Source: a virus
Taxonomy: Duplodnaviria > Heunggongvirae > Uroviricota > Caudoviricetes
IMG/VR virus record: IMGVR_UViG_3300021354_000001
Coordinates: 64,067-113,645 of that record
Reading direction: 5' to 3' (one strand)
Length of the DNA: 49,579 nt
Below, in pieces: positions 1 to 37,719 of this stretch. The position numbers and the translations under genes are program-made. Each line of letters begins with the position of its first letter. Position 1 is the stretch's first letter. The notes below the pieces were generated by a model, which worked only from the letters and a program-made list of their open reading frames with translations, made no database searches and was not told the origin of the DNA.

Positions 1-3000
1 GAACAATTGTTTAAGGATATAGATACAGGTAAATTTAAAAAAGCTAAACTTTCAGAAAGTGTAAAAGACCTAGAACCATTATATAGTCCTGTTGAAGGAA
101 TCACTCCTAAGCAAACACATGAGTTTGTTCAAGATATGACTCTTAGAGCTAGAAACTTCTTATTCAATGAGAATAAAGAATCTATATATAATCCTGCTAA
201 AATGACAAGCAATGAACTATTTAGACAAATAGAAGCTGCTTATATTATAGAGGGAAAAAGAGAAAGACTAAGTGATAAAGCTTGGGTTGATCTTGTTCAA
301 AAGACTAAAGAGTCTTTAAGAACATCTCTAGGTTTGAAGTTTAATGAAGAGGGTATAGCTGATTTAAATGCTGAAGATGCTAATACTAGAGAATATGATA
401 GAGATCCATTTAGTATGGGTAGAAATGATGCTTCTCCTGCTATTAAGATTGGATTAATGCTTCCTATGGTTTCTAATAAAGCTACATTAGGAAAGCTTCC
501 TGAAAGACAAATGTCTAGTATTGATGGATATAAAATCCTACCATATGTTCAATCATTCTCTACAATCATGGATAAATTATCCAATACAAGTGATGTAGAT
601 TTAATTGTAAAGAAATTAGGAGAACTTGCTAAGAATGATCCTAATTATGTTAGAGTGTTTAAAGATATTGGTGGTGATCCTAATGGTTTTACATTCAGTC
701 AAGATAATTTATCAACTCCAGCTGATTGGAGATACTTTGTTGACTTCTATCAAACCTTTAGTAAAATGAGACCAAATGTGGTAGCTCAATATACTAATGG
801 TAATGAAGTTTATTTGGGGGCAGCTAACTTATATACAGCAGCTAAGGGTGTTCAAAAAGGATGGTTACAGAATATGAGAGACCTTGCTAAACAACCAGGT
901 TCTCTTATCAAGTTTGATTCTGAGACTAAAACATATGGTACTGATCCTGAGGTATTTAAGAATACCCCAATAGGAAATGATATTGCTAAGTTAAACTTCT
1001 TAAACCAATTAGGAGTTAATGTTACACCAGAGATGTTTGCTAAGTTTAGTGATAAAGATCAAGAAGAGGTAGCTATTCAAGCTAGCTTAATACATGAATA
1101 TTTAAAAGAAAAGAAAGATTTAGTAAGTCTTACCGATGGTACATTAGATGTTAAAGGTAGATTTGCAACTATAGCTGAGGTTGTAGTTAAGTCAACTAAT
1201 CCATTACAAGATGGTATATATACAGGTGTAGATGGTAAAACAAGACAAGCTAACTCACAAAATAATGCTCTATCTTTATTTGCAAATAGGTTTAATGAAT
1301 CTAATACATTAACTGAACTTAAACAAAATAGACCAGAACTTAATGATGTATTCTGTACACACTCTCTAACTCTTCAAAAAGGAGGACAATTCTTTGATAA
1401 AGATGGTGTTAAAATTCCAGGAAAAGAATTACAAGTGGGATTAATCAGTGGTGATTTAGATGAAGTGAAAGATAAAGGTAGAGGAGTTACTAAACTTTCT
1501 CTTGGTAAAAGACTTGCTGCAGAAATTAATCAAAATGTAAATGGTTCATTTTATGTTCTTAATCCAGGAGATAGTGCTTCTGAATGGCAAAAGAATTTAG
1601 GTATCAATGTTCCATTTAAAGATGTACAAGGAGGTATTGAAAGCGATATTCATAATATTTTTAAAGGTTATTTATTAGATGATGTTGCTCTAGCATTAGA
1701 TTATAAAAATAGACAAAAACTTGCTAACGTTGGTAAGAAAGCTAAAGAACTAAGATTCTTTAAGGATGTTCTTTCTGATAAAGAAGGTAATGCTAATGAT
1801 CAATTAGAAGCAATAAATAATATGATTATTGCAAATAAAAGCTATGATGAAATTAGTAAATATATTACAGATAATATTTCTAAGATTAACACTAGTATTA
1901 TTAAATACTTAGATAATTCTGCAAATATACTTAAAAATGCTTTAATAAAGAATGACCAAATCAAATTAGCTCCAACTAAAAAAGAAGGATCTGATGAAGT
2001 TTTTTATACATTTAAAGGATTAACAAATAAGTTTGCTGAAGAGGCTGGTATTAATAAACTTATGTTAAGTGAACAAGATGTTAATGATTTAGTTAAATTT
2101 ATTGATACAAATAAAACTATAGCAAATATTGAATTTCATAAAATATTATTTGGTGATCCTTATCAATTTAAAGTGAAAGTTGAGAATGGTAAAACTATTT
2201 TTGACCAAACTAAGCGTGTGAAATCTTTTGATTCTCCTGCTGCAACAACATTCAATAGTGATGCATTTAACAACTGGCATAATATAGAATATAATAAAAC
2301 TGGATTATTTGGTCAAGAAGGTAGAATTATAATAGAGAAAGGTACTCCAGGATATGATGAGTTCAAAGATTATATGAGCACTGTTACTACTAATGATGTA
2401 GATGTTATTGGTAGAGTGATGGGTAAATCTACAGAGAATGATGCTTCTTCTATATTGATTGATAGAGCATATAGACAAGTTAAACTTAGAAATGCTGATT
2501 GGGGTCCTGATGCTGAAGCTAACTTCCAATGGAATATGGCTTATACAAGAAGAGCTCTTAATATAAGAAAAGATGTTGAGTGGACCTATGGAGATAATGA
2601 TGCTTTAAAAGCTCATGATGAAGCATTGCTTGCTACACCAGAACCTAAATTTATTAGAGAGGTATTAAAACCTATTGTTAGAGGTAATAAGTATGGTAGT
2701 GATAGAATTGATCTTATATTAGATAAAGATTCTCAAATGCCTTTATATTATAAAGATGTAGAGAAAGATAACACTGTATTAGCAGATTTATATATTAAGA
2801 TGTTACAAGAAGGTAATAAAGATTATATTATTGCTAAGAGTGGTAGAAAGTTAGGTATTGAAGGAATTCATGAATTATATGTTGATGGTAAATTTAACAC
2901 TGCACCATTTGCTGATGACACTATTGTAAATGTTCCTTGGAGTATATATGGTATTCAAGTGGAAAATAATTATGATGCTAAAGGAGGAAAAGTTACCTCT

Positions 3001-6000
3001 TCTGTACAGGTTCCTAAAATTATTAACTTAGACTTATTTGCTAATGGTAAACCAGTTACAACAGATGTAAAAAGAGCAGCAATTATTCAAGCTGAATATG
3101 ATCGTGGTGTAAGAATTAAAAATGCTCTTAATCAAAATGGATATGAGAACTTATTAAATAAACTTGGAATAGATGAAAATTTTAATGTAATTAATAGACA
3201 AGCATTAGCTGATTCTTTAAATCATGAAATTCTTAGAACTGCTGTTTCAGAGAATGTAAAAGATGCTATTACATTAGATGATAATGGTAACTTCATTATT
3301 CCATTTGAAGCTACATTCTCATATAAGAAGATTAAGGACATCATCTATTCAATGTTAGATAAGTCTATCAACCATGCTAAAACAAGTGGTGATGCATATG
3401 TACAGGCTCCTGTAACTATGTGGGAAGATGCTAGTAAGGGTAGAAGAGTAGTAGAAATAAATGGTAAGAAAGTATTAACAGATGACACTCTTCATTTCCC
3501 TACCAAAGAAGATCCATATATGGAAGTGATGCTTCCTCATTGGTTTGGTGAAAAGATAAAAAATAATAAGAGATTTGATACTGATGAGAAAGTTCTTAAC
3601 TATTTAAACACTACAACAGAAGGAAAAGAGATTCTTAGTGGTATAGCTTTCCGTATTCCTTGTACAGGAATGAACTCTATAGATTCTATAAGAGTTGCAA
3701 AGTTCTTACCACAAGCTATGGGTAAAACTGTAGTGGTACCTTCTGAAATTACAGTTAAAGCAGGTTCTGATTTTGACGTAGATAAACTTACTACTTATTT
3801 AAAGAATGTATACATTGATAAAAATAATGATTTAAAACTTGTTAGATATCAAGGATCTGAAGAAGCTACAAGAGCTTTCTTTGCTAAAAATTGGGATGAT
3901 ATTATAGAGGTTAAGAAGTTTAAAAAAGCTGAATTATTAGAAGCTGCTCAAATCCTATCTTATGATCTTGAAGATCCAAAAGGATTAGTAGAAAAATATG
4001 CTAATATATTAGATCAATTTAATCCTGAAACTTTAAGTCAGCTTGAAAATGATATAATGACTTCACTTGAAAAATTAGGTGATATTGATGCACAAGCTAA
4101 ATTAAAAGCAGATTATATCAATGACCATTATAGAGCTGCATTAGAAAATGAATACTATGATCATTTAGAAAAAATGATTAATCTTCCAGAAGTTTATGAG
4201 CAAAGAATGACTCCTGTAGATGATGCTGGATTAGCTAAGTTTGCTGATGAAATAAATGATCTTGAAAATAATAAAGATGAAGATATTAAGAATAGAATGA
4301 TTAATGGTACCTATCTTACAGAACAAAGACATGCTTTTGCTATGGCTAAAGCTTGGATAGGTATTGTTGCTTCAAACATTGCTGCTCATTCTGTTGCTCA
4401 AAAAGGTAATATAATTTTAGATCCTACTAGATTTGATAATATTGATCCTGCAGATCTTAAATATCTTGGAGATGGTAAGATTAATATTCCTCATAATAAA
4501 ATAGAAATTAATGGTGTAACATATGCAACTCTTTCTGGAGTTACAACAGCTGATGGTTCAACTAATATATCTACAAGATTAAGTGGACATGGATCTGCTG
4601 TAGTAGATGTAGTTAAAGATCCATTTATTCTTAAGATTATTAATAGTAATCTTGCTCCTACAATTGCAATGTTCTTAGAAAGAATGGGTACTGGTGAAAC
4701 AGGACTTTTATTAATGAAACAACCAATTGTTAAAGATTTTTTAACTAGATTAGATAATCGTGGTGCTTCTTCATTATTTAATCAATTTGATATTGATGAT
4801 GCTTTTAGTAGATTTATAACCACTGAAAGTGCAATAATATCTGCAGATACATTGAATATTGATAAACTTGAAGAGAATATTAGAAAATATAATAGAGAAG
4901 GACTCACTTCTAAAGAAAATGCTGAACAGCATTTAATATTAAATGAGTTCTTGAAATATGCTAAGATGTCTGAATATATGTCTGACATTAACCAAGCTCT
5001 TACATATGACACAGCTAAATTTGGTAATGGAGAAGCTTTAAGCAAGAAGCAATATAGAACAGAAAGAGCATTAAGTAACAATATATTTGGTGGTGTTCAA
5101 GAGTTATTAGACAATACATTCTTAGGAGAACAATCTAAATTTCTTGATAAAGGTATAAATGCTATTGGTGAAATATTAAAACTTGAAGGTAGAGACTTTA
5201 GAAACATTACTAACCAAGTGTTAGATCCATACATGAAGAATAAGTATTTAGGAGCTAATGACTTTAATACTATTGGAAACAAGATTAAAATGTCTTTCTT
5301 AGACTACATCATTCAAATTAAAAGTGATATTAGTGATAGTATTAAACCTCTTATTGCTGACACACAAACATCAATTGCTTCTCAATTAGCTAAAGCTAAA
5401 GAAGAATATCCTGATATGGAGATATTAAAAGTGCTAGAATCTACACCTGCTATTAGAGAAGGTGGTCCAAGGTCTGTTACATTAAAAATTAATTTAAGAA
5501 ATGATGCAGCTACAGAGGATATCTTCACTGGATATATGAGAGAACTTAGAGATAATGTCGGAACTAATGAATTATATAATAATTTAGTAAAGGTGGCTAT
5601 TCTTCAAGGTATGTACAAGTCTCCAATATCTATTAGTAACATCATCCCTGTAGAAGATTTTAGTAAGTCTATTACACCTATTGTTACTGGTTTACATGTT
5701 GATAAAGAATTAGAAAACTTTACTAAAGGTTGGTTCCAAAGAAACAATTTTAAAGATAAAAGTGTATTTACTAGAATAGAGCCCAAATTTAAAGTGGGTT
5801 CATGGAGTGGTCCTTCTTGGGACCCTAATAGTATTCCTACAATTTATTATTCTATACAACATTTTCCTACAATAGAAACATATAACATTGCTTCTACAGA
5901 TAGAAAAATTCTTAAACTTAATGAGAAGTATAATTACCAGGGAACTAAATCTGACTATGTTCAATTTGCTAGAGGATTAGAAGTAACTAGAGGAGGTAAA

Positions 6001-7872
6001 CCTACAGGAGAAATAATTGATGTTCAAACAGGTAAGCCTATCAGTAAGAACCAATTAAGACTTATGAAAGAGAAAGGAGACACTTCTTTTAAAGACTTAT
6101 ATAACTATCAAAGAGTTACAAATGCAGATGGTTCACCATTCTATGTATATGAGGATGGAGATAAGATACATGTATATAAGCTAATTAATGTATATGGTGA
6201 CGGTAACTTAGTACATGAATACTATGACAGTTTCAAACCTTCTCCATTTAATACTGGTACAATACAAGTGAAAGAAGAACTTACAGATGAGCAAGTGAGA
6301 AATGCTTTATCATTTAAAGCTGATCCAGGTGCTGTTTCTATAGAATTAGCTATAAAAGATGTTAATAAACAAATTGTAATACAAGAAAAACCTATTGAAA
6401 CTCAACCAGTTAAAGAAAAGCCAATTGAGAAAGCTCAACCTACAAGAACTATTCTTGAGGCTAGACAAAATCCTATTGATTACACACCAGGACAAATTAA
6501 AGCTTTGAATCAAGTGGGAGCTTTAATTGATAAGAATGAGCAAGGGTATTATTTATTAGCTGGATATGCTGGTACAGGTAAGACAACTATTGCTGAAAAT
6601 ATAGCTAACTATGCTCAAGAAAATGGTAGACAAGTACATATATTAGCTCCTACAAATAAAGCTGCTAAGGTGTTAAATGACAAACTTAAAGCTACAGGAG
6701 TTAGAACAGATGCACAAACTATTCATAAAGCAATTTATGGAGAGCCTGATTCTAATACAGGAGAATGGATACCTAAGACTAACTTAAAGAATAGTGTTAT
6801 ACTAGTAGATGAGTCTTCTATGATATCTAAGGATGTGATGGCAGATCTTATTACTAATAGTAAAAACAATAATATTATTGTATTTATGGGTGATAGCTTT
6901 CAATTAGAACCTGTAGGAGATGATTCTAAATTATTTACAGGAGGAGTTCCTCAAGTGATAAACTCACAATCTCAACTTACTGAAGTAAAAAGACAATCTT
7001 TAGATAGTAATATATTAAAAGTGGCTACATTAGTTAGAACTGATAATAAAGGATATATTCCTGAACAATCTATGGATGATTTTAAAGTTAGTAAATCTAG
7101 AGGTGAGTTCATAAAAGAGTTTAGAGAAGCTATTAAGAATAATGAAAATGCTGTAGCTATTGTTGCAACAAACAATGAAAGACTTATAATGAATGATGCT
7201 GCTAGAATGGAGAAATTTGGACCAGATAGAAAAATATTAAATGATGGAGAAACATTAATTGCTGTAGCTAACTCTTCTGATATCCCTAACTCAGAGATAT
7301 TTAAAGCAGTTGAGATGAGAGGTGAACCTGAAAAACATGTATTAACATTTGACTTTAATGGTAAAGAATCTACATACAATATGTATTTAGTACATATTGT
7401 TGGAGAAGATGGTAAAGAGAGAAAGGTGATGCATTTTCCTGCATTAGATAAACCTAGTTTATATCACTCTCAAATATTAACAGCTATTCGTAATTCTAAT
7501 CCACAATTATTTAGTAATCTAGATAATGATAGTGATATTATTCATACCAAAAAAGGAGCTAAACTTTCTCCAGCAATTGTAATCTCTACATATGGATATG
7601 CTGTAACAGCTCATAAATCTCAAGGTTCTCAATGGGATAAGGTGTTTGTAAACCAAAACTATAATGCTCCAGGTTGGAATCCTGCTAGATGGTATTACAC
7701 AGCTATTACAAGAAGTGCTAAAGACTTAGTTGTTCTACCTTCAGCTAGTAATATTAGAATCAAAAATGCTGATATAGAAAGCAAGATAAATTCTATTGTT
7801 CCTGAAGAAAATGATATAACTTTGCAAATAGAAAATGAGACAGGTTTAAATACTAAAGACTTTAAATGTTAA
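1..7872 (+). CDS. Giant virion RNA polymerase (two-barrel, crAss-like) with C-terminal Dda/RecD-like SF1B helicase; 5'-truncated by the window edge
   Basis: GSDFDVDKL metal-binding loop (DFDVD at 3769-3783) preceded by FRIP; also LKPIVRG..DKDSQMPL and GIQVE. C-terminus has Walker A GYAGTGKT (6562-6585), LAPTNKAA, Walker B VDESSM, GDSFQLEPV, YAVTAHKSQGSQW and YTAITR. Frame is open to base 1. Confidence 0.85.
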   Translation, partial: EQLFKDIDTGKFKKAKLSESVKDLEPLYSPVEGITPKQTHEFVQDMTLRARNFLFNENKESIYNPAKMTSNELFRQIEAAYIIEGKRERLSDKAWVDLVQKTKESLRTSLGLKFNEEGIADLNAEDANTREYDRDPFSMGRNDASPAIKIGLMLPMVSNKATLGKLPERQMSSIDGYKILPYVQSFSTIMDKLSNTSDVDLIVKKLGELAKNDPNYVRVFKDIGGDPNGFTFSQDNLSTPADWRYFVDFYQTFSKMRPNVVAQYTNGNEVYLGAANLYTAAKGVQKGWLQNMRDLAKQPGSLIKFDSETKTYGTDPEVFKNTPIGNDIAKLNFLNQLGVNVTPEMFAKFSDKDQEEVAIQASLIHEYLKEKKDLVSLTDGTLDVKGRFATIAEVVVKSTNPLQDGIYTGVDGKTRQANSQNNALSLFANRFNESNTLTELKQNRPELNDVFCTHSLTLQKGGQFFDKDGVKIPGKELQVGLISGDLDEVKDKGRGVTKLSLGKRLAAEINQNVNGSFYVLNPGDSASEWQKNLGINVPFKDVQGGIESDIHNIFKGYLLDDVALALDYKNRQKLANVGKKAKELRFFKDVLSDKEGNANDQLEAINNMIIANKSYDEISKYITDNISKINTSIIKYLDNSANILKNALIKNDQIKLAPTKKEGSDEVFYTFKGLTNKFAEEAGINKLMLSEQDVNDLVKFIDTNKTIANIEFHKILFGDPYQFKVKVENGKTIFDQTKRVKSFDSPAATTFNSDAFNNWHNIEYNKTGLFGQEGRIIIEKGTPGYDEFKDYMSTVTTNDVDVIGRVMGKSTENDASSILIDRAYRQVKLRNADWGPDAEANFQWNMAYTRRALNIRKDVEWTYGDNDALKAHDEALLATPEPKFIREVLKPIVRGNKYGSDRIDLILDKDSQMPLYYKDVEKDNTVLADLYIKMLQEGNKDYIIAKSGRKLGIEGIHELYVDGKFNTAPFADDTIVNVPWSIYGIQVENNYDAKGGKVTSSVQVPKIINLDLFANGKPVTTDVKRAAIIQAEYDRGVRIKNALNQNGYENLLNKLGIDENFNVINRQALADSLNHEILRTAVSENVKDAITLDDNGNFIIPFEATFSYKKIKDIIYSMLDKSINHAKTSGDAYVQAPVTMWEDASKGRRVVEINGKKVLTDDTLHFPTKEDPYMEVMLPHWFGEKIKNNKRFDTDEKVLNYLNTTTEGKEILSGIAFRIPCTGMNSIDSIRVAKFLPQAMGKTVVVPSEITVKAGSDFDVDKLTTYLKNVYIDKNNDLKLVRYQGSEEATRAFFAKNWDDIIEVKKFKKAELLEAAQILSYDLEDPKGLVEKYANILDQFNPETLSQLENDIMTSLEKLGDIDAQAKLKADYINDHYRAALENEYYDHLEKMINLPEVYEQRMTPVDDAGLAKFADEINDLENNKDEDIKNRMINGTYLTEQRHAFAMAKAWIGIVASNIAAHSVAQKGNIILDPTRFDNIDPADLKYLGDGKINIPHNKIEINGVTYATLSGVTTADGSTNISTRLSGHGSAVVDVVKDPFILKIINSNLAPTIAMFLERMGTGETGLLLMKQPIVKDFLTRLDNRGASSLFNQFDIDDAFSRFITTESAIISADTLNIDKLEENIRKYNREGLTSKENAEQHLILNEFLKYAKMSEYMSDINQALTYDTAKFGNGEALSKKQYRTERALSNNIFGGVQELLDNTFLGEQSKFLDKGINAIGEILKLEGRDFRNITNQVLDPYMKNKYLGANDFNTIGNKIKMSFLDYIIQIKSDISDSIKPLIADTQTSIASQLAKAKEEYPDMEILKVLESTPAIREGGPRSVTLKINLRNDAATEDIFTGYMRELRDNVGTNELYNNLVKVAILQGMYKSPISISNIIPVEDFSKSITPIVTGLHVDKELENFTKGWFQRNNFKDKSVFTRIEPKFKVGSWSGPSWDPNSIPTIYYSIQHFPTIETYNIASTDRKILKLNEKYNYQGTKSDYVQFARGLEVTRGGKPTGEIIDVQTGKPISKNQLRLMKEKGDTSFKDLYNYQRVTNADGSPFYVYEDGDKIHVYKLINVYGDGNLVHEYYDSFKPSPFNTGTIQVKEELTDEQVRNALSFKADPGAVSIELAIKDVNKQIVIQEKPIETQPVKEKPIEKAQPTRTILEARQNPIDYTPGQIKALNQVGALIDKNEQGYYLLAGYAGTGKTTIAENIANYAQENGRQVHILAPTNKAAKVLNDKLKATGVRTDAQTIHKAIYGEPDSNTGEWIPKTNLKNSVILVDESSMISKDVMADLITNSKNNNIIVFMGDSFQLEPVGDDSKLFTGGVPQVINSQSQLTEVKRQSLDSNILKVATLVRTDNKGYIPEQSMDDFKVSKSRGEFIKEFREAIKNNENAVAIVATNNERLIMNDAARMEKFGPDRKILNDGETLIAVANSSDIPNSEIFKAVEMRGEPEKHVLTFDFNGKESTYNMYLVHIVGEDGKERKVMHFPALDKPSLYHSQILTAIRNSNPQLFSNLDNDSDIIHTKKGAKLSPAIVISTYGYAVTAHKSQGSQWDKVFVNQNYNAPGWNPARWYYTAITRSAKDLVVLPSASNIRIKNADIESKINSIVPEENDITLQIENETGLNTKDFKC

Positions 7873-7875
7873 TCA

Positions 7876-10800
7876 ATGATAGGTTGTCAAGACGGTATAC
7901 AAAATGCTATTAGAAAATATGTAGAGGATAAATCTTATTTAAGATTTGATGGAAAAGACTTTATAGAAGTTCTTACATCATATAAAGCAAGAGTAAATCC
8001 TTCTAATTATTATAGAGTGGCAGAATCTGTAGCTAAAAAACTAAACAAAGATATTAATACAGATCTTGTATTAGGTAAGATATTTTATCCAAAACAATAT
8101 TCAGATGGTGTAGGAGTTATAGCAGCTCCTACAAAAGAACAATTAGCATTATTAAATGCTGCTGGAGAAGCTGAATATAAACAAGCTTTAGATAGTCTTG
8201 ATGAAGTTATGCCTAAAAAGGATAGACTTGATTTAGAAAATAATACAAGCTTTGGTGTAAATAGTGAAGGAGATAGTATGTTACAAAAACCAGGAACTGA
8301 AAGTTCTTTAGCTTCTCCAGAAACAGTTAATTTAGTTAAAGACCTACTTACTAGATTAGGTGTTGATATTAAAGAAGTTGAAAAGATTTATAACAATGGT
8401 GTAAAACAAAATGCTAATGGTATAGCTAGACTAACACAAAGATTAGTAGAAGTGATTCAAGGAGCTGAGGCTAAATCTCTTGGTGAAGAAGGTATGCACT
8501 TTGTTGTAGCTATCATTAAACAAACTAATCCTCAGCTTTATAAACAACTATTAAAAGAAATTAATAGTTATGATATGCTTAATAGGGTGTATGAGAATTA
8601 TGGAACAGATCCTAACTATCAACTTAATGGTAAACCAGATGTATTAAAACTTAAAGAAGAAGCTATTGCTAAAGTTTTAATTGAACATATTATTGATAAA
8701 AATGAAGGATCTACAGAAAAACCTGAGAACTTAGCTAAAACAGAAACATGGTGGCAAAAAATTATTAATTTCATTAAAGGCTTATTTGCTAAAAATGGAT
8801 TTGATAAAGCTGCTATGGATATTATTACTGGAAAAGATATAGGTACAGCTGCTGATATTAGAGAAGAGGCAGGAAGAACATTTGAACAAAAGAAAACAGG
8901 AGATTCACAAACAGATACATTTGATCTTATAAAAGAGGAGGAAAGTAAAATGACTCCTCCAGATAATACTAAAAAAACTCCTTATACATATAATGGAAAA
9001 GATGTAGGTCTTAGAACAAGTGATGTCATAAAAGAATATTATAATGATGTATTTAGAGGTAGAAAAGGTGGAACAGATGAAGAATTTGCAGAAGCTATCA
9101 ACTCTATATATGCAGAAACAGGAACCACTTGGCATGCTGTTCAAGATAGTTTAGTAAAAAATGTATTCACTGATAAAGATGGTTATGTTAGAGAAATAGA
9201 AGGAGATGATAGTGATTATATATCCAACTTAGATGAAATAGATAGAGGGATATATACTATGTTAAAAGACAATATGCGAGATAGAATTAAATCACTTAAT
9301 GAGGATAGAAAGACTAGATTCTTAAGTGAGGTGATGATCATCAATCCTAAATATGGAAGAGCAGGTCTTGCAAGCACTGTAGACTTTATGGCAATTAAAA
9401 GTAATGGTAATATTATTCTTCTTGACTGGAAGTTTATGAAATTAAACACTGATAAATATCAAGATGTTCAATGGTATAAAATTGGTGCTTGGAATGAGCA
9501 AATGGATCTTATTAAGAATACACTTGTAAAAGCATACGGAATTAATCCAAATAGATTTGAACAAGCTATGATGATTCCTATTAGAGCTAATTATAGTAGT
9601 GTTAATAAAGCTAAAAATATTCTTCCTAGACTTTTAAGTATAGAAATAGGAGATGTTAATATTAAAAACATTGCTCTAGATTATTTAATACCTGTAGGCA
9701 TTGAATCTCAATCTACTGGTAAAGATCGTATAGATAGATTATTAAAATCATTAAATGCTGATTATAAGGCAATGGCTAATCAACCTGCAATAGGTTTTAC
9801 TGCTAAGTCTGAGAAGGCTGAGCAAATGAATGCTGCTTTTTCTGCTATAAGAAAATTACAAATGCAGCAAGATATTAAACCATTATTAAAGCAGGCTGAT
9901 ATATTAATGTATTATATCAAGAAAACAATAAATAATTATAAAACTAATTGGGAAGGAACAGATCCATTTATATATAGTGATGAAGTTATGAGTTCATTTT
10001 CTGATGAATTAAGAAATCATCAAGCTTCTTTAAATCCTTATTTAACATTAAATACAGCATTAGCAGAATTATTTGAAAATGATCTTGATAAAGATCAAAA
10101 AGAACTTAAAACAAGACTTAGAGATACAGTGTTTGAGGCAGCTGATCTAATGGAAAGTCTTAAAGAAACTCAAATAAAGTTTGGTGAAAACTTCTTAGCT
10201 GCAAGAGAAGGATTTGATGAATTAGCAAAAGCTGATAAAATAGTTAGAGGAATGGCATGGTTATTTAACTCAATCCCATTAATTCAAACTAGAGGAATAC
10301 AAGTATTTTTTGCTAAAGAAAATAGAACCTTAGCATTAGCTGCTCAAGAAATTTTTAATCAAGCAGAACAATTAAAAAGTATTAGTAAGGAATATCTTCC
10401 AATGGCTACTTCTAAAGGACTTACAAGAAAGAATATTCTTGATCCAATTAAGAAAAAAGATAAACATGAACTTATTGATGAATATAACCCTGAATTCTAT
10501 GAGCAATTAAAAACTAAAATAGAAGAAGGTGATATTAAATGGATTAGAGACAATGTAGATATTGATGCTACAAAAGCTTTATTGCAAGAAAGACTTGATA
10601 AAGAACTTGAAAGTGTTACTAATAGAGGTAATGCAGAAGGTCTATCTGAAGATGAACTTAATAGAAAATTAGATGCTAAACGTAGAGAATGGGATAGTTC
10701 TGAAAAAGGAGCTGGTTGGTTACAATATTATCAAGTTAAACAAAATCCTATAAGAGATAAGTGGGAGTCTCCAGAGTTTAAAAAATTAAATAGTCCTGGA

Positions 10801-12903
10801 TATGAACCAGCTAAAAGATTATATGATTACATAATAGAAAGAAATAAATATAATGCATCTATAGGGTATTTAAGTAAACAAGATGCTGCTAGAACATTTC
10901 TACCATGGATACCTATGGGTATTGTTGAAACTTTAGCTGCTGGTGGAGATTTAAAGATGGCAGAAAACTTATTACAGCATATATCTATAGATAGTGATGA
11001 AGCAGGGTTCAGTAATTATGATCCACGTTCTGGAAAAGAAATTAATAGAATCCCTATATATTTTACTAAAGAAGTTAAAGGAAAAGCTGCAAGTGAAGAC
11101 ATATTTAAAATAATGGCATTATATAATGCTGCAGCAATTAGATTTAAATTCATGCAGGATATTGAAGGACAAGCATTATTACTTTCAGATATAGAAGAGA
11201 ATAAAGATTCTATTAATACATCATGGTTTGGTAGATCAAGAATAAAAAATGGCAAGTTAGATATCATTGAAGGAGATAACACTAGTAACTCTGATTTATT
11301 AAAAGCCATGATTAAGATAGTATTATATAATCAAAGATATTTAGGCACTGCTAACTTTGATGCTTTATTAGGAAAGATCGGTGACTGGGGCCAAAATGTT
11401 AATAAAGCTTTAGGAATTAATATATTTCCAGAAGGGCAAATTAGTCTTAATCAAACTGTACATGCTTTAAATAATTATTTTAGACTTAAAACATTAGGTA
11501 TTAGTATTTTATCACCTATGTCTAACCTATTAGGAGGTACATTCCAATCTATGATTAACTCTGAGAAATATTTTACTAGAGCAGATCATATGAAATATCA
11601 AATAATAACTGCTGGTAAATTATTTGGAATTAGTTTTGAAAATAGAGAAAAGATACTTAAAGCACTAGATTATTTTCTTCCTTATTCAGAAAACTATACA
11701 GCAGAATATGCTAGAGAGCTTTCTTTAAATAAATTAGATGGAGATAAAATAAACCATTTTATGATGGGGCTTATGTCTAAATCTGAAAAAAGTGTTCAGT
11801 TTACAAATTTTTTAAGTTTTATTAATAATACAATAATTAAAGATAGTGTAGTTTTTAATACTAGAGAGTATGTAAGAACACTTCCTGAGTTTAAAAATAT
11901 GTTTATTGGTTCTCAATCAGAACAATTAAATAGAAGAGAAGCTTTTGATAATGAAGTGGATAGACTTAATAAAGAATTTGGTATATTAAAACTTGGAGAA
12001 ATAATCAACAATCAATTTGTTATTCCTGGTATAGAAAGATCTTCTGATAATATTATTAAGTTAAGAACACAAATACAGCAAATTAATACAGATGCATTAG
12101 GTACTATGACAGAGTCTCAAAAAAGAATGCTAAATGCTATGATTTTAACAGATTCTGCAGCGATGTTTAAAGGATGGATTCCACGAATGGTTGATGTAAG
12201 ATTTGGTGATCTTAAATATAACTCAGCATCTCAAGCTTGGGAGTTTGGTAGAATGAGAACATTTGCTAATGAAGTTACTAAAAGAAATTTTTATACATTA
12301 GGTAACTTAAAAGGATTACTATCAGGAACTGTTACAGAAGAAGGATTTAAAAGAATGAAAGAAGATTATGAAAAGAAGAAAGAAGACTATGAAAAACAAA
12401 CAGGAAGAAAGTTTAATATGACTGAAGATGAATTCATGAACTTATATCACAGAAACTTAAGAGGATCTATATTTGATGTATTAGCTAGTCTTACGTTTCT
12501 TGGAATCTTCTTAGGACTTAAAGCTAATGAGCCAGATAAAAATCAGGATGCACAAATTAGAAATAGCTATAAGTTTATGTTAAAAGCAGCTGATAAGTTT
12601 AGAGATGAGCTTACATATTTCTATGATCCATCCAGTATTAGTGGGTTAATTAGTACAGGGATATTTCCTACATTTAAATTAGTTACAGATTTTGAAAAGC
12701 TATTAGCTAATTTTATGAAATATAATTGGGGATTAATTCATGGAAAAAGTTCAGAAGATATGAAAGATATACATTTTATTAAATATTTTATGAATGAGAT
12801 TCCAGGAGTTAACCAAATGCAACCATATTTAACAATGGCTGTTCCTGATGTAGCTAAAGTGATGGGTATTCAACCACAATCTCAGTCTGGATTTAATAGG
12901 TAA
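7876..12903 (+). CDS. Large virion internal (ejected cargo) protein with degenerate zincin-like segment and PD-(D/E)xK nuclease-like domain
   Basis: 1675 aa directly after the vRNAP; EEGMH..EEAIAK (8485-8499); E..TVDF..LLDWK motif (E at 9328, DWK at 9424-9432); long helical C-terminal region. Confidence 0.6.
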   Translation: MIGCQDGIQNAIRKYVEDKSYLRFDGKDFIEVLTSYKARVNPSNYYRVAESVAKKLNKDINTDLVLGKIFYPKQYSDGVGVIAAPTKEQLALLNAAGEAEYKQALDSLDEVMPKKDRLDLENNTSFGVNSEGDSMLQKPGTESSLASPETVNLVKDLLTRLGVDIKEVEKIYNNGVKQNANGIARLTQRLVEVIQGAEAKSLGEEGMHFVVAIIKQTNPQLYKQLLKEINSYDMLNRVYENYGTDPNYQLNGKPDVLKLKEEAIAKVLIEHIIDKNEGSTEKPENLAKTETWWQKIINFIKGLFAKNGFDKAAMDIITGKDIGTAADIREEAGRTFEQKKTGDSQTDTFDLIKEEESKMTPPDNTKKTPYTYNGKDVGLRTSDVIKEYYNDVFRGRKGGTDEEFAEAINSIYAETGTTWHAVQDSLVKNVFTDKDGYVREIEGDDSDYISNLDEIDRGIYTMLKDNMRDRIKSLNEDRKTRFLSEVMIINPKYGRAGLASTVDFMAIKSNGNIILLDWKFMKLNTDKYQDVQWYKIGAWNEQMDLIKNTLVKAYGINPNRFEQAMMIPIRANYSSVNKAKNILPRLLSIEIGDVNIKNIALDYLIPVGIESQSTGKDRIDRLLKSLNADYKAMANQPAIGFTAKSEKAEQMNAAFSAIRKLQMQQDIKPLLKQADILMYYIKKTINNYKTNWEGTDPFIYSDEVMSSFSDELRNHQASLNPYLTLNTALAELFENDLDKDQKELKTRLRDTVFEAADLMESLKETQIKFGENFLAAREGFDELAKADKIVRGMAWLFNSIPLIQTRGIQVFFAKENRTLALAAQEIFNQAEQLKSISKEYLPMATSKGLTRKNILDPIKKKDKHELIDEYNPEFYEQLKTKIEEGDIKWIRDNVDIDATKALLQERLDKELESVTNRGNAEGLSEDELNRKLDAKRREWDSSEKGAGWLQYYQVKQNPIRDKWESPEFKKLNSPGYEPAKRLYDYIIERNKYNASIGYLSKQDAARTFLPWIPMGIVETLAAGGDLKMAENLLQHISIDSDEAGFSNYDPRSGKEINRIPIYFTKEVKGKAASEDIFKIMALYNAAAIRFKFMQDIEGQALLLSDIEENKDSINTSWFGRSRIKNGKLDIIEGDNTSNSDLLKAMIKIVLYNQRYLGTANFDALLGKIGDWGQNVNKALGINIFPEGQISLNQTVHALNNYFRLKTLGISILSPMSNLLGGTFQSMINSEKYFTRADHMKYQIITAGKLFGISFENREKILKALDYFLPYSENYTAEYARELSLNKLDGDKINHFMMGLMSKSEKSVQFTNFLSFINNTIIKDSVVFNTREYVRTLPEFKNMFIGSQSEQLNRREAFDNEVDRLNKEFGILKLGEIINNQFVIPGIERSSDNIIKLRTQIQQINTDALGTMTESQKRMLNAMILTDSAAMFKGWIPRMVDVRFGDLKYNSASQAWEFGRMRTFANEVTKRNFYTLGNLKGLLSGTVTEEGFKRMKEDYEKKKEDYEKQTGRKFNMTEDEFMNLYHRNLRGSIFDVLASLTFLGIFLGLKANEPDKNQDAQIRNSYKFMLKAADKFRDELTYFYDPSSISGLISTGIFPTFKLVTDFEKLLANFMKYNWGLIHGKSSEDMKDIHFIKYFMNEIPGVNQMQPYLTMAVPDVAKVMGIQPQSQSGFNR

Positions 12904-36642: not shown

Positions 36643-37076
36643 TTTATTTTGTTTATTTGGTTATAAAATCCTTCTGAGAGATATTGCATTTCATATGCAT
36701 ACACTTCTTCTGTAGTGTCATTAAATGGTACACCAGCCCAATGCATTATATCAATTGTAGCATGTAAAAGCTCATGATTAATAACAGATATATTAGCATT
36801 ATATGGAATCCATATAATAGGAGATTTACCATCTATTGTAGTGAATGTAGTGGCTCTAGAATCAAATGCTTCTGATATAATTGTACTATCTAGATTCTCT
36901 CTAACATATCTAAGAGCAAATGCTGTATCATCTGTAACAATCACTTTTACGTTAAGATCAAATGTACCACTATTGATTGTAATCAATTGATATCTAGTAC
37001 CTAATCCACTATTTTTACAAGAACATATTCCTATTATTCCTGCAATTACAAATAGTAATTTAAATTTATTTACCAT
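36639..37076 (-). CDS. Lipoprotein with HExxH zinc-peptidase motif
   Basis: Signal peptide ending IGICSC; NHELLH and downstream EEVYAY. Confidence 0.6.
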   Translation of the reverse strand: MVNKFKLLFVIAGIIGICSCKNSGLGTRYQLITINSGTFDLNVKVIVTDDTAFALRYVRENLDSTIISEAFDSRATTFTTIDGKSPIIWIPYNANISVINHELLHATIDIMHWAGVPFNDTTEEVYAYEMQYLSEGFYNQINKIK

Positions 37077-37719
37077 ATTCTAGTTCTAATATTTTACCTA
37101 CTAAATCAGATCTATGATTTTCTTTAAGCTTAATCCATTTAACTTCTTCTAGTTTTTTAGAAAGCTCAATAGCATAAGATAGTCCATTCATACCATGAGT
37201 GCTAATATCAGTTTGTTCATTATCGCCATTGATAATAATCTTACCTGTCTTACCTAACCTAGTTAGAATAGCAAGCATTTCAGCTTTAGATAAATTCTGG
37301 GCTTCTTCTACAATAAGAAGATCATCCACTGTCTTACCCCTGATAAACTGTACAGGATACGCTAGAATTTTCTTCTCAGCTACAAGTTCCTCCACCTTTA
37401 ACTTCTCATGGCATTTAATTAGGTTTTCCATAAAAGCTTCTAAATAAGGATTAAACTTGTCCTCTAAAGCCCCAGGTAAAAATCCCATAGAATTACCCAC
37501 TTCTATAGTGGCTCTAGTAACAAACACCTTGTCACATTCTTTTTTAAACAAAAAGTCTAAAGCACACTGAGCTGAGACTAAAGATTTACCACATCCAGCT
37601 CTACCTGTTATAACTACTATTTGATTCTCTCTAATAAGCCTTTTAGCTTCTTTTTGTTCATCATTTAATTGTAACTTATACTTGATATCATTTTTACGTT
37701 CTCTATTGGGTTCTTTCAT
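37066..37719 (-). CDS. phoH: PhoH-family ATPase
   Basis: GRAGCGKS Walker A, GFLPG, FIRGKT, IVEEAQN, LTRLG, GD..QTD, HRS. Confidence 0.93.
   Translation of the reverse strand: MKEPNRERKNDIKYKLQLNDEQKEAKRLIRENQIVVITGRAGCGKSLVSAQCALDFLFKKECDKVFVTRATIEVGNSMGFLPGALEDKFNPYLEAFMENLIKCHEKLKVEELVAEKKILAYPVQFIRGKTVDDLLIVEEAQNLSKAEMLAILTRLGKTGKIIINGDNEQTDISTHGMNGLSYAIELSKKLEEVKWIKLKENHRSDLVGKILELEYGK

Follow-up and report, generated by a model that had tools for sequence, protein, structure and literature searches.

An optional Dda-type helicase cassette at the C-terminal end of a giant crAss-type virion RNA polymerase

Few known viruses are as abundant as the crAss-like phages, and their virion RNA polymerases (RNAPs) raise the question of how an injected polymerase that prefers single-stranded DNA (ssDNA) in vitro starts on the duplex entering the cell. 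The RNAP of phage phi14:2, gp66, is virion-borne, transcribes the early genes, and uses single-stranded or denatured DNA efficiently but native duplex poorly (bioRxiv 10.1101/2020.03.07.982082). A locus that bears on this question lies in IMG/VR record IMGVR_UViG_3300021354_000001, a complete 113,645-bp phage genome with direct terminal repeats, of which bases 64067-113645 (49,579 nucleotides, referred to as the window) were analyzed; positions are those of the window, and coding features lie on the plus strand, unless stated otherwise. The first 7,872 nucleotides encode the C-terminal part of a giant protein in which a gp66 homologue is joined in frame to a complete Dda-type helicase of superfamily 1B (SF1B). 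Is this helicase a working enzyme, is it a fixed part of the polymerase, and what might it do for the phage?

The helicase domain, delimited by Pfam, PHROG, PDB and fold matches, occupies 6442..7824 (residues 3915-4375 of the full protein). It matches the Pfam families AAA_30 (5.9e-28), AAA_19 (2e-22) and UvrD_C_2 (2e-12) as well as PHROG 325, "Dda-like helicase" (4e-68), and its sequence matches in the PDB are a Dda-like enzyme (9KWF), DSH9, RecD2, T4 Dda and RecD. All SF1B motifs are present, i.e., GTGKT within the Walker A sequence GYAGTGKT (6562-6585), Walker B DESSM (6808-6822), GDSFQLEPV, EVKRQ, ATNNER, and VTAHKSQG...TAITRS, the first part of which is motif VI (7603-7626). These motifs are invariant or nearly so in two alignments: no catalytic motif varies among seven fused homologues that share 54-86% identity along the aligned C-terminal tail, nor, among 45 sequences including standalone helicases, do Walker A and B, motif III, the arginine finger, or motif VI. 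The AlphaFold (AF2) model of the domain has a predicted local distance difference test (pLDDT) score of 91.2, and Foldseek places T4 Dda (3upu_A) first over the full length (E 4e-22, template modelling (TM) scores 0.65/0.68), followed by DSH9, RecD2, RecD, and Pif1. The likeness to T4 Dda (PDB 3UPU) and to RecD2, RecD, and Pif1 thus covers the full-length fold and all core motifs; identity to T4 Dda is about 21%, and Dda is a free 440-aa enzyme whereas the domain described here is the C-terminal end of a giant protein. Judged from these alignments and the model, the domain is a complete SF1B helicase with the two-RecA fold and accessory domains of Dda, it is under purifying selection, and it is apparently active; ATP-driven 5'-to-3' translocation on ssDNA would be expected from its family membership. 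A preliminary description, made from the letters of the window, had reported a full Dda/RecD-like motif set and an in-frame fusion of an RNAP to a complete helicase. Both claims held, with exact motif coordinates and with agreement among Pfam, PHROG 325, and the Foldseek match to 3upu_A.

The polymerase part was harder to recognize. Neither Pfam nor PHROGs gave a match on it or on the N-terminal 1,767 aa, and a single-sequence search of the PDB missed 6VR4 (gp66), so that a profile was required. The profile built from 56 homologues matched 6VR4_A with an E value of 6.3e-32 and aligned the DFDxD loops of the two (TKAGSDFDIDK paired with TKTGSDFDIDK); S-D-F-D-x-D-K is invariant among the 56. The catalytic, Mg-binding loop of the protein in question is DFDVD (GATTTTGACGTAGAT, 3769..3783), which stands opposite 1361-DFDID of gp66 in both the profile and the BLASTP alignments. 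When residues 900-2100 of the window-encoded part were searched by tblastn, matches were found in 105 crAss-like phage records, and phi14:2 g066, annotated "catalytic RNA polymerase subunit", was matched with an E value of 6e-10. The two-barrel RNAP core homologous to gp66 maps to 2338..4860 (residues 2547-3387 of the full protein); its AF2 model has a pLDDT of 77.6, and Foldseek returned 6vr4_A as the top match (E 2.5e-20, TMq 0.61), then QDE-1 (E 8e-5), and then bacterial beta-prime subunits. From profile and model we regard the protein as a crAss-type virion RNAP homologue of the gp66 family. The assignment first proposed from the DFDVD loop is borne out, since the loop lies exactly at 3769-3783 and the region expected to form a double-psi beta-barrel does model as a two-barrel polymerase.

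The gene is larger than the window. Frame 1 contains no stop from the first base until the TAA at 7870-7872, and to that extent the "one uninterrupted ORF" (open reading frame) of the preliminary description is correct; however, the ORF is 5'-open in the window and its start codon lies 5,301 nt upstream in the genome record. The full gene (genome 58766-71938) encodes 4,390 aa, of which window positions 1..7872 hold the C-terminal 2,623 codons plus the stop, a size that had been overlooked together with the cargo part at the gp67 position. The genes g067, g066, and g065 of phi14:2 (1,797, 2,180, and 1,421 aa) follow one another in that order, and all three products are annotated from tandem mass spectrometry (MS/MS) proteomics as present in virions. 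The locus shares with them (Drobysheva et al., bioRxiv 10.1101/2020.03.07.982082) the gene order with giant neighbours, the two-barrel RNAP with its aligned DFDxD loop, and cysteines nearly confined to the protein ends, and its next cargo gene (7876..12903, 1,675 aa) occupies the position of g065. It differs in that identity is about 22-24% only, in that the g067- and g066-position proteins form one 4,390-aa chain, and in the helicase itself: phi14:2 has no SF1B helicase anywhere in its genome, in agreement with the earlier statement that gp66 carries no such domain. Fused polyprotein forms have already been reported for some crAss-like phages (bioRxiv 10.1101/2020.03.07.982082), and the present chain fits a gp67-position protein fused to a gp66-type two-barrel virion RNAP. 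Because pairwise BLASTP gave no significant match between the N-terminal part and g067 or between the downstream protein and g065, the gp67 and gp65 equivalences are drawn from position and size only.

Could the join of polymerase and helicase be an artifact? The family-conserved core ends with ...QVKEELTDEQVRNALSFKADP (6297..6336), where the BLASTP homology of 120 relatives stops, and is followed by a Pro/Glu/Lys/Gln-rich linker whose length and sequence differ among the fused homologues. A Pro/Lys/Glu linker had been placed near 6360-6460; the linker exists, is Gln-rich as well, and maps to about 6337..6441. One might suppose that the assembly is chimeric or that two separate genes are read through, and two related scaffolds of the European Nucleotide Archive (ENA) do carry 100-N gaps exactly at the pre-helicase linker (L089, about 9900-10020; L090, about 9890-10010). 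Against this supposition, the same in-frame fusion occurs in independent JGI, ENA, Logan, and IMG/VR assemblies, with 58-88% helicase identity on the JGI, ENA, and IMG/VR contigs; base composition is even along the giant gene, including across the junction; and the junction shows no stop, no Met codon in the linker, no terminator between the two domains, and no promoter-like sites there above chance. We consider an artifact extremely improbable, and the fusion is confirmed, in sequence, as a real in-frame join. The closely related helicases P0229 and P0231, which at first seemed to stand alone, proved to be fused forms split by 100-N scaffold gaps. Assemblies may tend to break at this place, possibly because several cassette variants coexist in one population.

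Comparison with relatives makes plain that the helicase is no constant component of the enzyme. A search with the RNAP core gave 688 relatives, most of them 3,700-4,560 aa long. The 120 best share BLASTP homology from residue 1 to residue ~3854-3879 of the full protein (window ~6300-6340), and beyond this point they carry tails of 24-695 aa. Almost no tail is present in 42 of the 120, and the other 78 have tails of at least 80 aa that fall into 37 sequence clusters; eight of the 120 have the helicase as tail, others match NADAR, AlkB-like 2OG-FeII_Oxy_2, His_Phos_1, or AlkB plus NADAR in Pfam, and many match no recognized family. The RNAP-core tree has 105 rows, of which 13 carry the helicase, and it implies a minimum of five gains or losses of that domain. 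Within the clade of the query itself, the helicase is shared by P0004 and P0005, its place is taken in P0006 (79% core identity) by a NADAR domain that also matches Phage_30_3, and P0007 (75% core identity) has the linker and end peptide only. Other contents may exist: the weak DprA match in the tail of P0103, and the 5,801-aa giant gene of cr130_1 (NC_055901), which has an RNAP match and is annotated as "DprA-like DNA recombination-mediator protein", suggest that DprA-like modules may be another cassette type.

The exchange extends past the end of the gene. In blastn comparison with the P0006 and P0007 contigs, 79-82% identity runs up to 6359 and 6342, respectively, no similarity is seen beyond, and similarity of 78-80% returns at exactly 8297 in both. 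The swapped island (6343..8296) therefore holds the linker, the helicase, a short end peptide with its terminal Cys (7825..7872), the gene junction, and the opening ~137 codons of the gene that follows. The N-terminal module of that next gene (7876..8296, ~137 aa) is a second cassette slot by its homology pattern: in 66 related loci the alignment of the downstream protein begins at about residue 137 here and at residue 16-687 in theirs, and some relatives carry ART-PolyVal in this module. The ~137 N-terminal residues of the 1,675-aa protein in the present genome resemble no recognizable family. Because variable modules lie on both sides of the gene junction, the island is two-sided. Direct repeats flanking the cassette in this genome were limited to short imperfect matches. 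Within this hypervariable island, which spans the junction with the next cargo gene, the helicase is an optional cassette, one of many swappable modules at its slot.

These swaps bear directly on the reading first proposed for the fusion, an obligate coupled RNAP-helicase motor for opening promoters or for ratcheting the phage DNA into the host. The covalent tether through the linker, the recurrence of the helicase in RNAP-bearing chains, and the preference of gp66 for single-stranded template are what one would expect of such a machine. Yet the nearest relatives have NADAR or nothing in its place on RNAP cores that are still 75-79% identical, PF13604 is matched nowhere in the genomes of three complete relatives that lack the fusion, and linker length and helicase position vary freely. 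An obligate machine is unlikely because the cassette is swapped among relatives in a generic variable slot, and this part of the preliminary description was not supported.

How common the fusion is depends on the sample. It is a minority state among the RNAP relatives (8 of the 120) and on 80 IMG/VR loci, where the helicase was found on three giants, two of them with a divergent version; but it recurs widely, the related helicase being found in 111 clusters of 1,442-4,591-aa proteins from uncultured phages, so that the suggestion that it might already be routine is neither simply right nor simply wrong. These helicase-bearing giants often have NADAR, AlkB-like, ART-PolyVal, or Kinase-PolyVal domains as well, and many of them also contain a DFDxD motif, either N- or C-terminal to the helicase. 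Of the 150 best 50%-identity representatives in an exhaustive search, about 35 exceed 2,000 aa; those sharing at least 50% identity with the query helicase are, with few exceptions, giants or pieces of giants. The best phage match in GenBank, MT835724, is a standalone 679-aa helicase and no fusion. One 2,778-aa helicase-bearing relative (P0146) sits in a eukaryote-labelled assembly (eukprot, SAG31 node) and is probably phage DNA in a single-cell sample. No SF1B helicase was detected in phi14:2 or in four reference gut Crassvirales genomes (n=5). In the genome studied here PF13604 is matched by the fused copy and, weakly, by a 217-aa ORF (37066-37719, minus strand) whose two AAA_30 matches reach 34.5 bits together; it encodes a small P-loop ATPase and no helicase. 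That the fused domain is the sole SF1B helicase of this genome, that T4 Dda is its best structural match, and that polyvalent proteins have been proposed to jump-start replication (PMC5512222) might point to a starter of replication or recombination, like T4 Dda at origins, for which the RNAP chain would be a delivery route only. Relatives replicate without the helicase, however, and replication genes are normally expressed after entry, which leaves little obvious gain from injection; we think this role very improbable.

We propose, with moderate confidence, that the helicase is an optional injected helper acting on the incoming DNA, and that template supply is its most likely benefit. The whole 4,390-aa chain would travel in the capsid and be ejected before the DNA into the cell, where the helicase would refold, load on the entering phage DNA and, with ATP, translocate 5'-to-3', opening the duplex and stripping bound proteins. 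The likeliest gain would be a single-stranded template for a polymerase that prefers one, and a closely related gain would be protection of the incoming DNA. Presence in the virion is most likely by analogy with phi14:2 and crAss001 proteomics: the crAss001 homologues were detected in virions, and the cargo proteins of that phage are believed to leave it partly unfolded and before the DNA (PMC10172136). Rifampicin-resistant early transcription would be expected on the same grounds. Virion structural genes recognized by PHROGs lie upstream of the giant gene, which has the 1,675-aa gene and a gene for a collagen-like fibre on its downstream side. The next-best match of the RNAP core offers a parallel in Neurospora RNA silencing, where QDE-1 requires the helicase QDE-3 and the single-strand-binding protein RPA on DNA (bioRxiv 10.1101/2020.03.07.982082); the difference is that QDE-3 is a separate RecQ-type (SF2) protein of a eukaryotic system, whereas the SF1B domain is part of the same chain here. 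The more distant giants, in which helicase and DFDxD motif share one chain in either order, also fit template supply.

Several points weigh against this proposal. What the analysis shows is homology, fold, conserved motifs, the optional status of the cassette, and the borders of the island; packaging, ejection, ATPase activity, unwinding, polarity, and biological role are all matters of inference. Most relatives and all five reference Crassvirales tested manage without an SF1B helicase, and the polymerase therefore does not need one. The slot also holds enzymes unrelated to strand opening, which argues for general cargo over a transcription-specific role. Finally, cleavage of the chain after ejection may uncouple the helicase from the polymerase, and polyprotein cleavage was proposed in the gp66 paper (bioRxiv 10.1101/2020.03.07.982082). 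With regard to possible peptidase sites, one HELFH motif occurs in the full protein, at residue 1672 (genome 63779-63793, upstream of the window); the site reads HE-x-x-(E/H) in relatives, mostly HExxE, and is non-canonical for a zincin. The downstream 1,675-aa protein has no HExxH, and no Pfam peptidase match was found.

The company that the helicase keeps at its slot points to what we rank as the main rival explanation. It may be a counter-defence effector that acts apart from transcription, by clearing or outcompeting host nucleases and DNA-bound immune complexes on the incoming DNA or by occupying DNA ends against RecBCD-type enzymes, and would then resemble the injected, helicase-bearing DarB protein of P1. 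NADAR, one of the sister cassettes at the same slot, is an established anti-DarTG1 factor in T4-like phages (PMC11825919), and the cassette of the nearest relative, with matches to both NADAR and Phage_30_3, resembles these enzymes of the T4 gp30.3 type; it differs in being an alternative to the helicase, not the helicase itself, and in being fused to a virion protein versus encoded as a free early gene. ART-PolyVal occurs in the neighbouring slot, the patchy and fast-swapping distribution is typical of arms-race genes, and injected polyvalent proteins with helicases have been described (PMC5512222). On the other side, Dda-type helicases have not been shown to counter any known defence system, polyvalent proteins as described carry helicases of the SWI2/SNF2 type paired with methylases or UvrD-like ones and not SF1B, and nothing here ties the cassette to a host defence repertoire. 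We take counter-defence as a serious possibility that is nonetheless rather unlikely.

The polyvalent proteins (Iyer et al. 2017, PMC5512222), which include N4-like virion RNAP fusions and P1 DarB, are also the closest general precedent for the architecture. They are giant, multi-domain, encoded among late or virion genes, and predicted to be injected with the DNA, and they combine unrelated enzymes; here delivery would follow from the homologues, the chain combines RNAP and helicase, relatives add NADAR, AlkB-like, His_Phos_1, and ART-PolyVal domains, and the Pfam family ART-PolyVal itself is found in the neighbouring slot of relatives. The difference is that PMC5512222 treats the T7-like N4 polymerase, not the two-barrel crAss type, and its text does not mention crAss, SF1, NADAR, or AlkB. 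Our literature search found no paper in which a crAss-like RNAP is connected to a helicase, NADAR, AlkB, or polyvalent proteins. Nor was one found on an SF1B cassette carried by a two-barrel virion polymerase, on the two-sided island, or on its alternative cassettes, though Figure 3 of Yutin 2021 could depict some of this.

A further regularity lies at the center of the island. The 4,390-aa protein has three cysteines, one of which is its last residue (TGT 7867-7869, directly before the stop), and the only Cys of the next protein is residue 4 (TGT 7885-7887). A Cys is found within the last six residues in all 120 relatives, and in 69 of 69 loci the next protein begins M-x(1-3)-C, usually with its only Cys. 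The same pattern is seen at both junctions of phi14:2 g067/g066/g065 and of cr111_1 gp032/033/034. From this sequence pattern we suggest that the paired terminal cysteines link the cargo proteins into a string through a disulfide or a metal. The tail of crAss001 is known to contain disulfides; none have been reported for cargo proteins, and we found no paper that describes the cysteine pairs. The cassettes flank this Cys|Cys joint, and one may speculate, though we hold the idea to be doubtful, that the whole is a two-sided effector island built around it. A virion disulfide would thread the cargo proteins so that they are ejected as one string and released by reduction in the cytoplasm; the released helicase, as the last folded unit of the RNAP chain, would open the duplex for a polymerase that needs ssDNA; and the sister cassettes would clean the template, with NADAR and AlkB-like domains clearing ADP-ribosyl and alkyl lesions, respectively. 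If true, such an island would account for initiation by crAss-type virion polymerases on the double-stranded DNA that is injected, and it would mean that one of the most abundant groups of phages has a programmable payload slot.

Near-isogenic natural phages that carry helicase, NADAR, or nothing at one slot offer an experimental handle on transcription start, and the same natural set is a handle on what injected accessory enzymes do for the phage. The sharp boundaries of the island mark where giant genes accept new domains, and they should help in annotating metagenomic giants and in finding counter-defence enzymes among the unrecognized cassettes. The neighbourhood may hold more cargo: three ORFs directly upstream of the giant gene (genome 50945-58766; 607, 1,074, and 888 aa) contain no cysteine and have no Pfam or PHROG match, and their products are likely to be ejected as cargo too. 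One of these ORFs has a counterpart in the P0006 phage that carries a histidine-phosphatase domain (L095 1-897).

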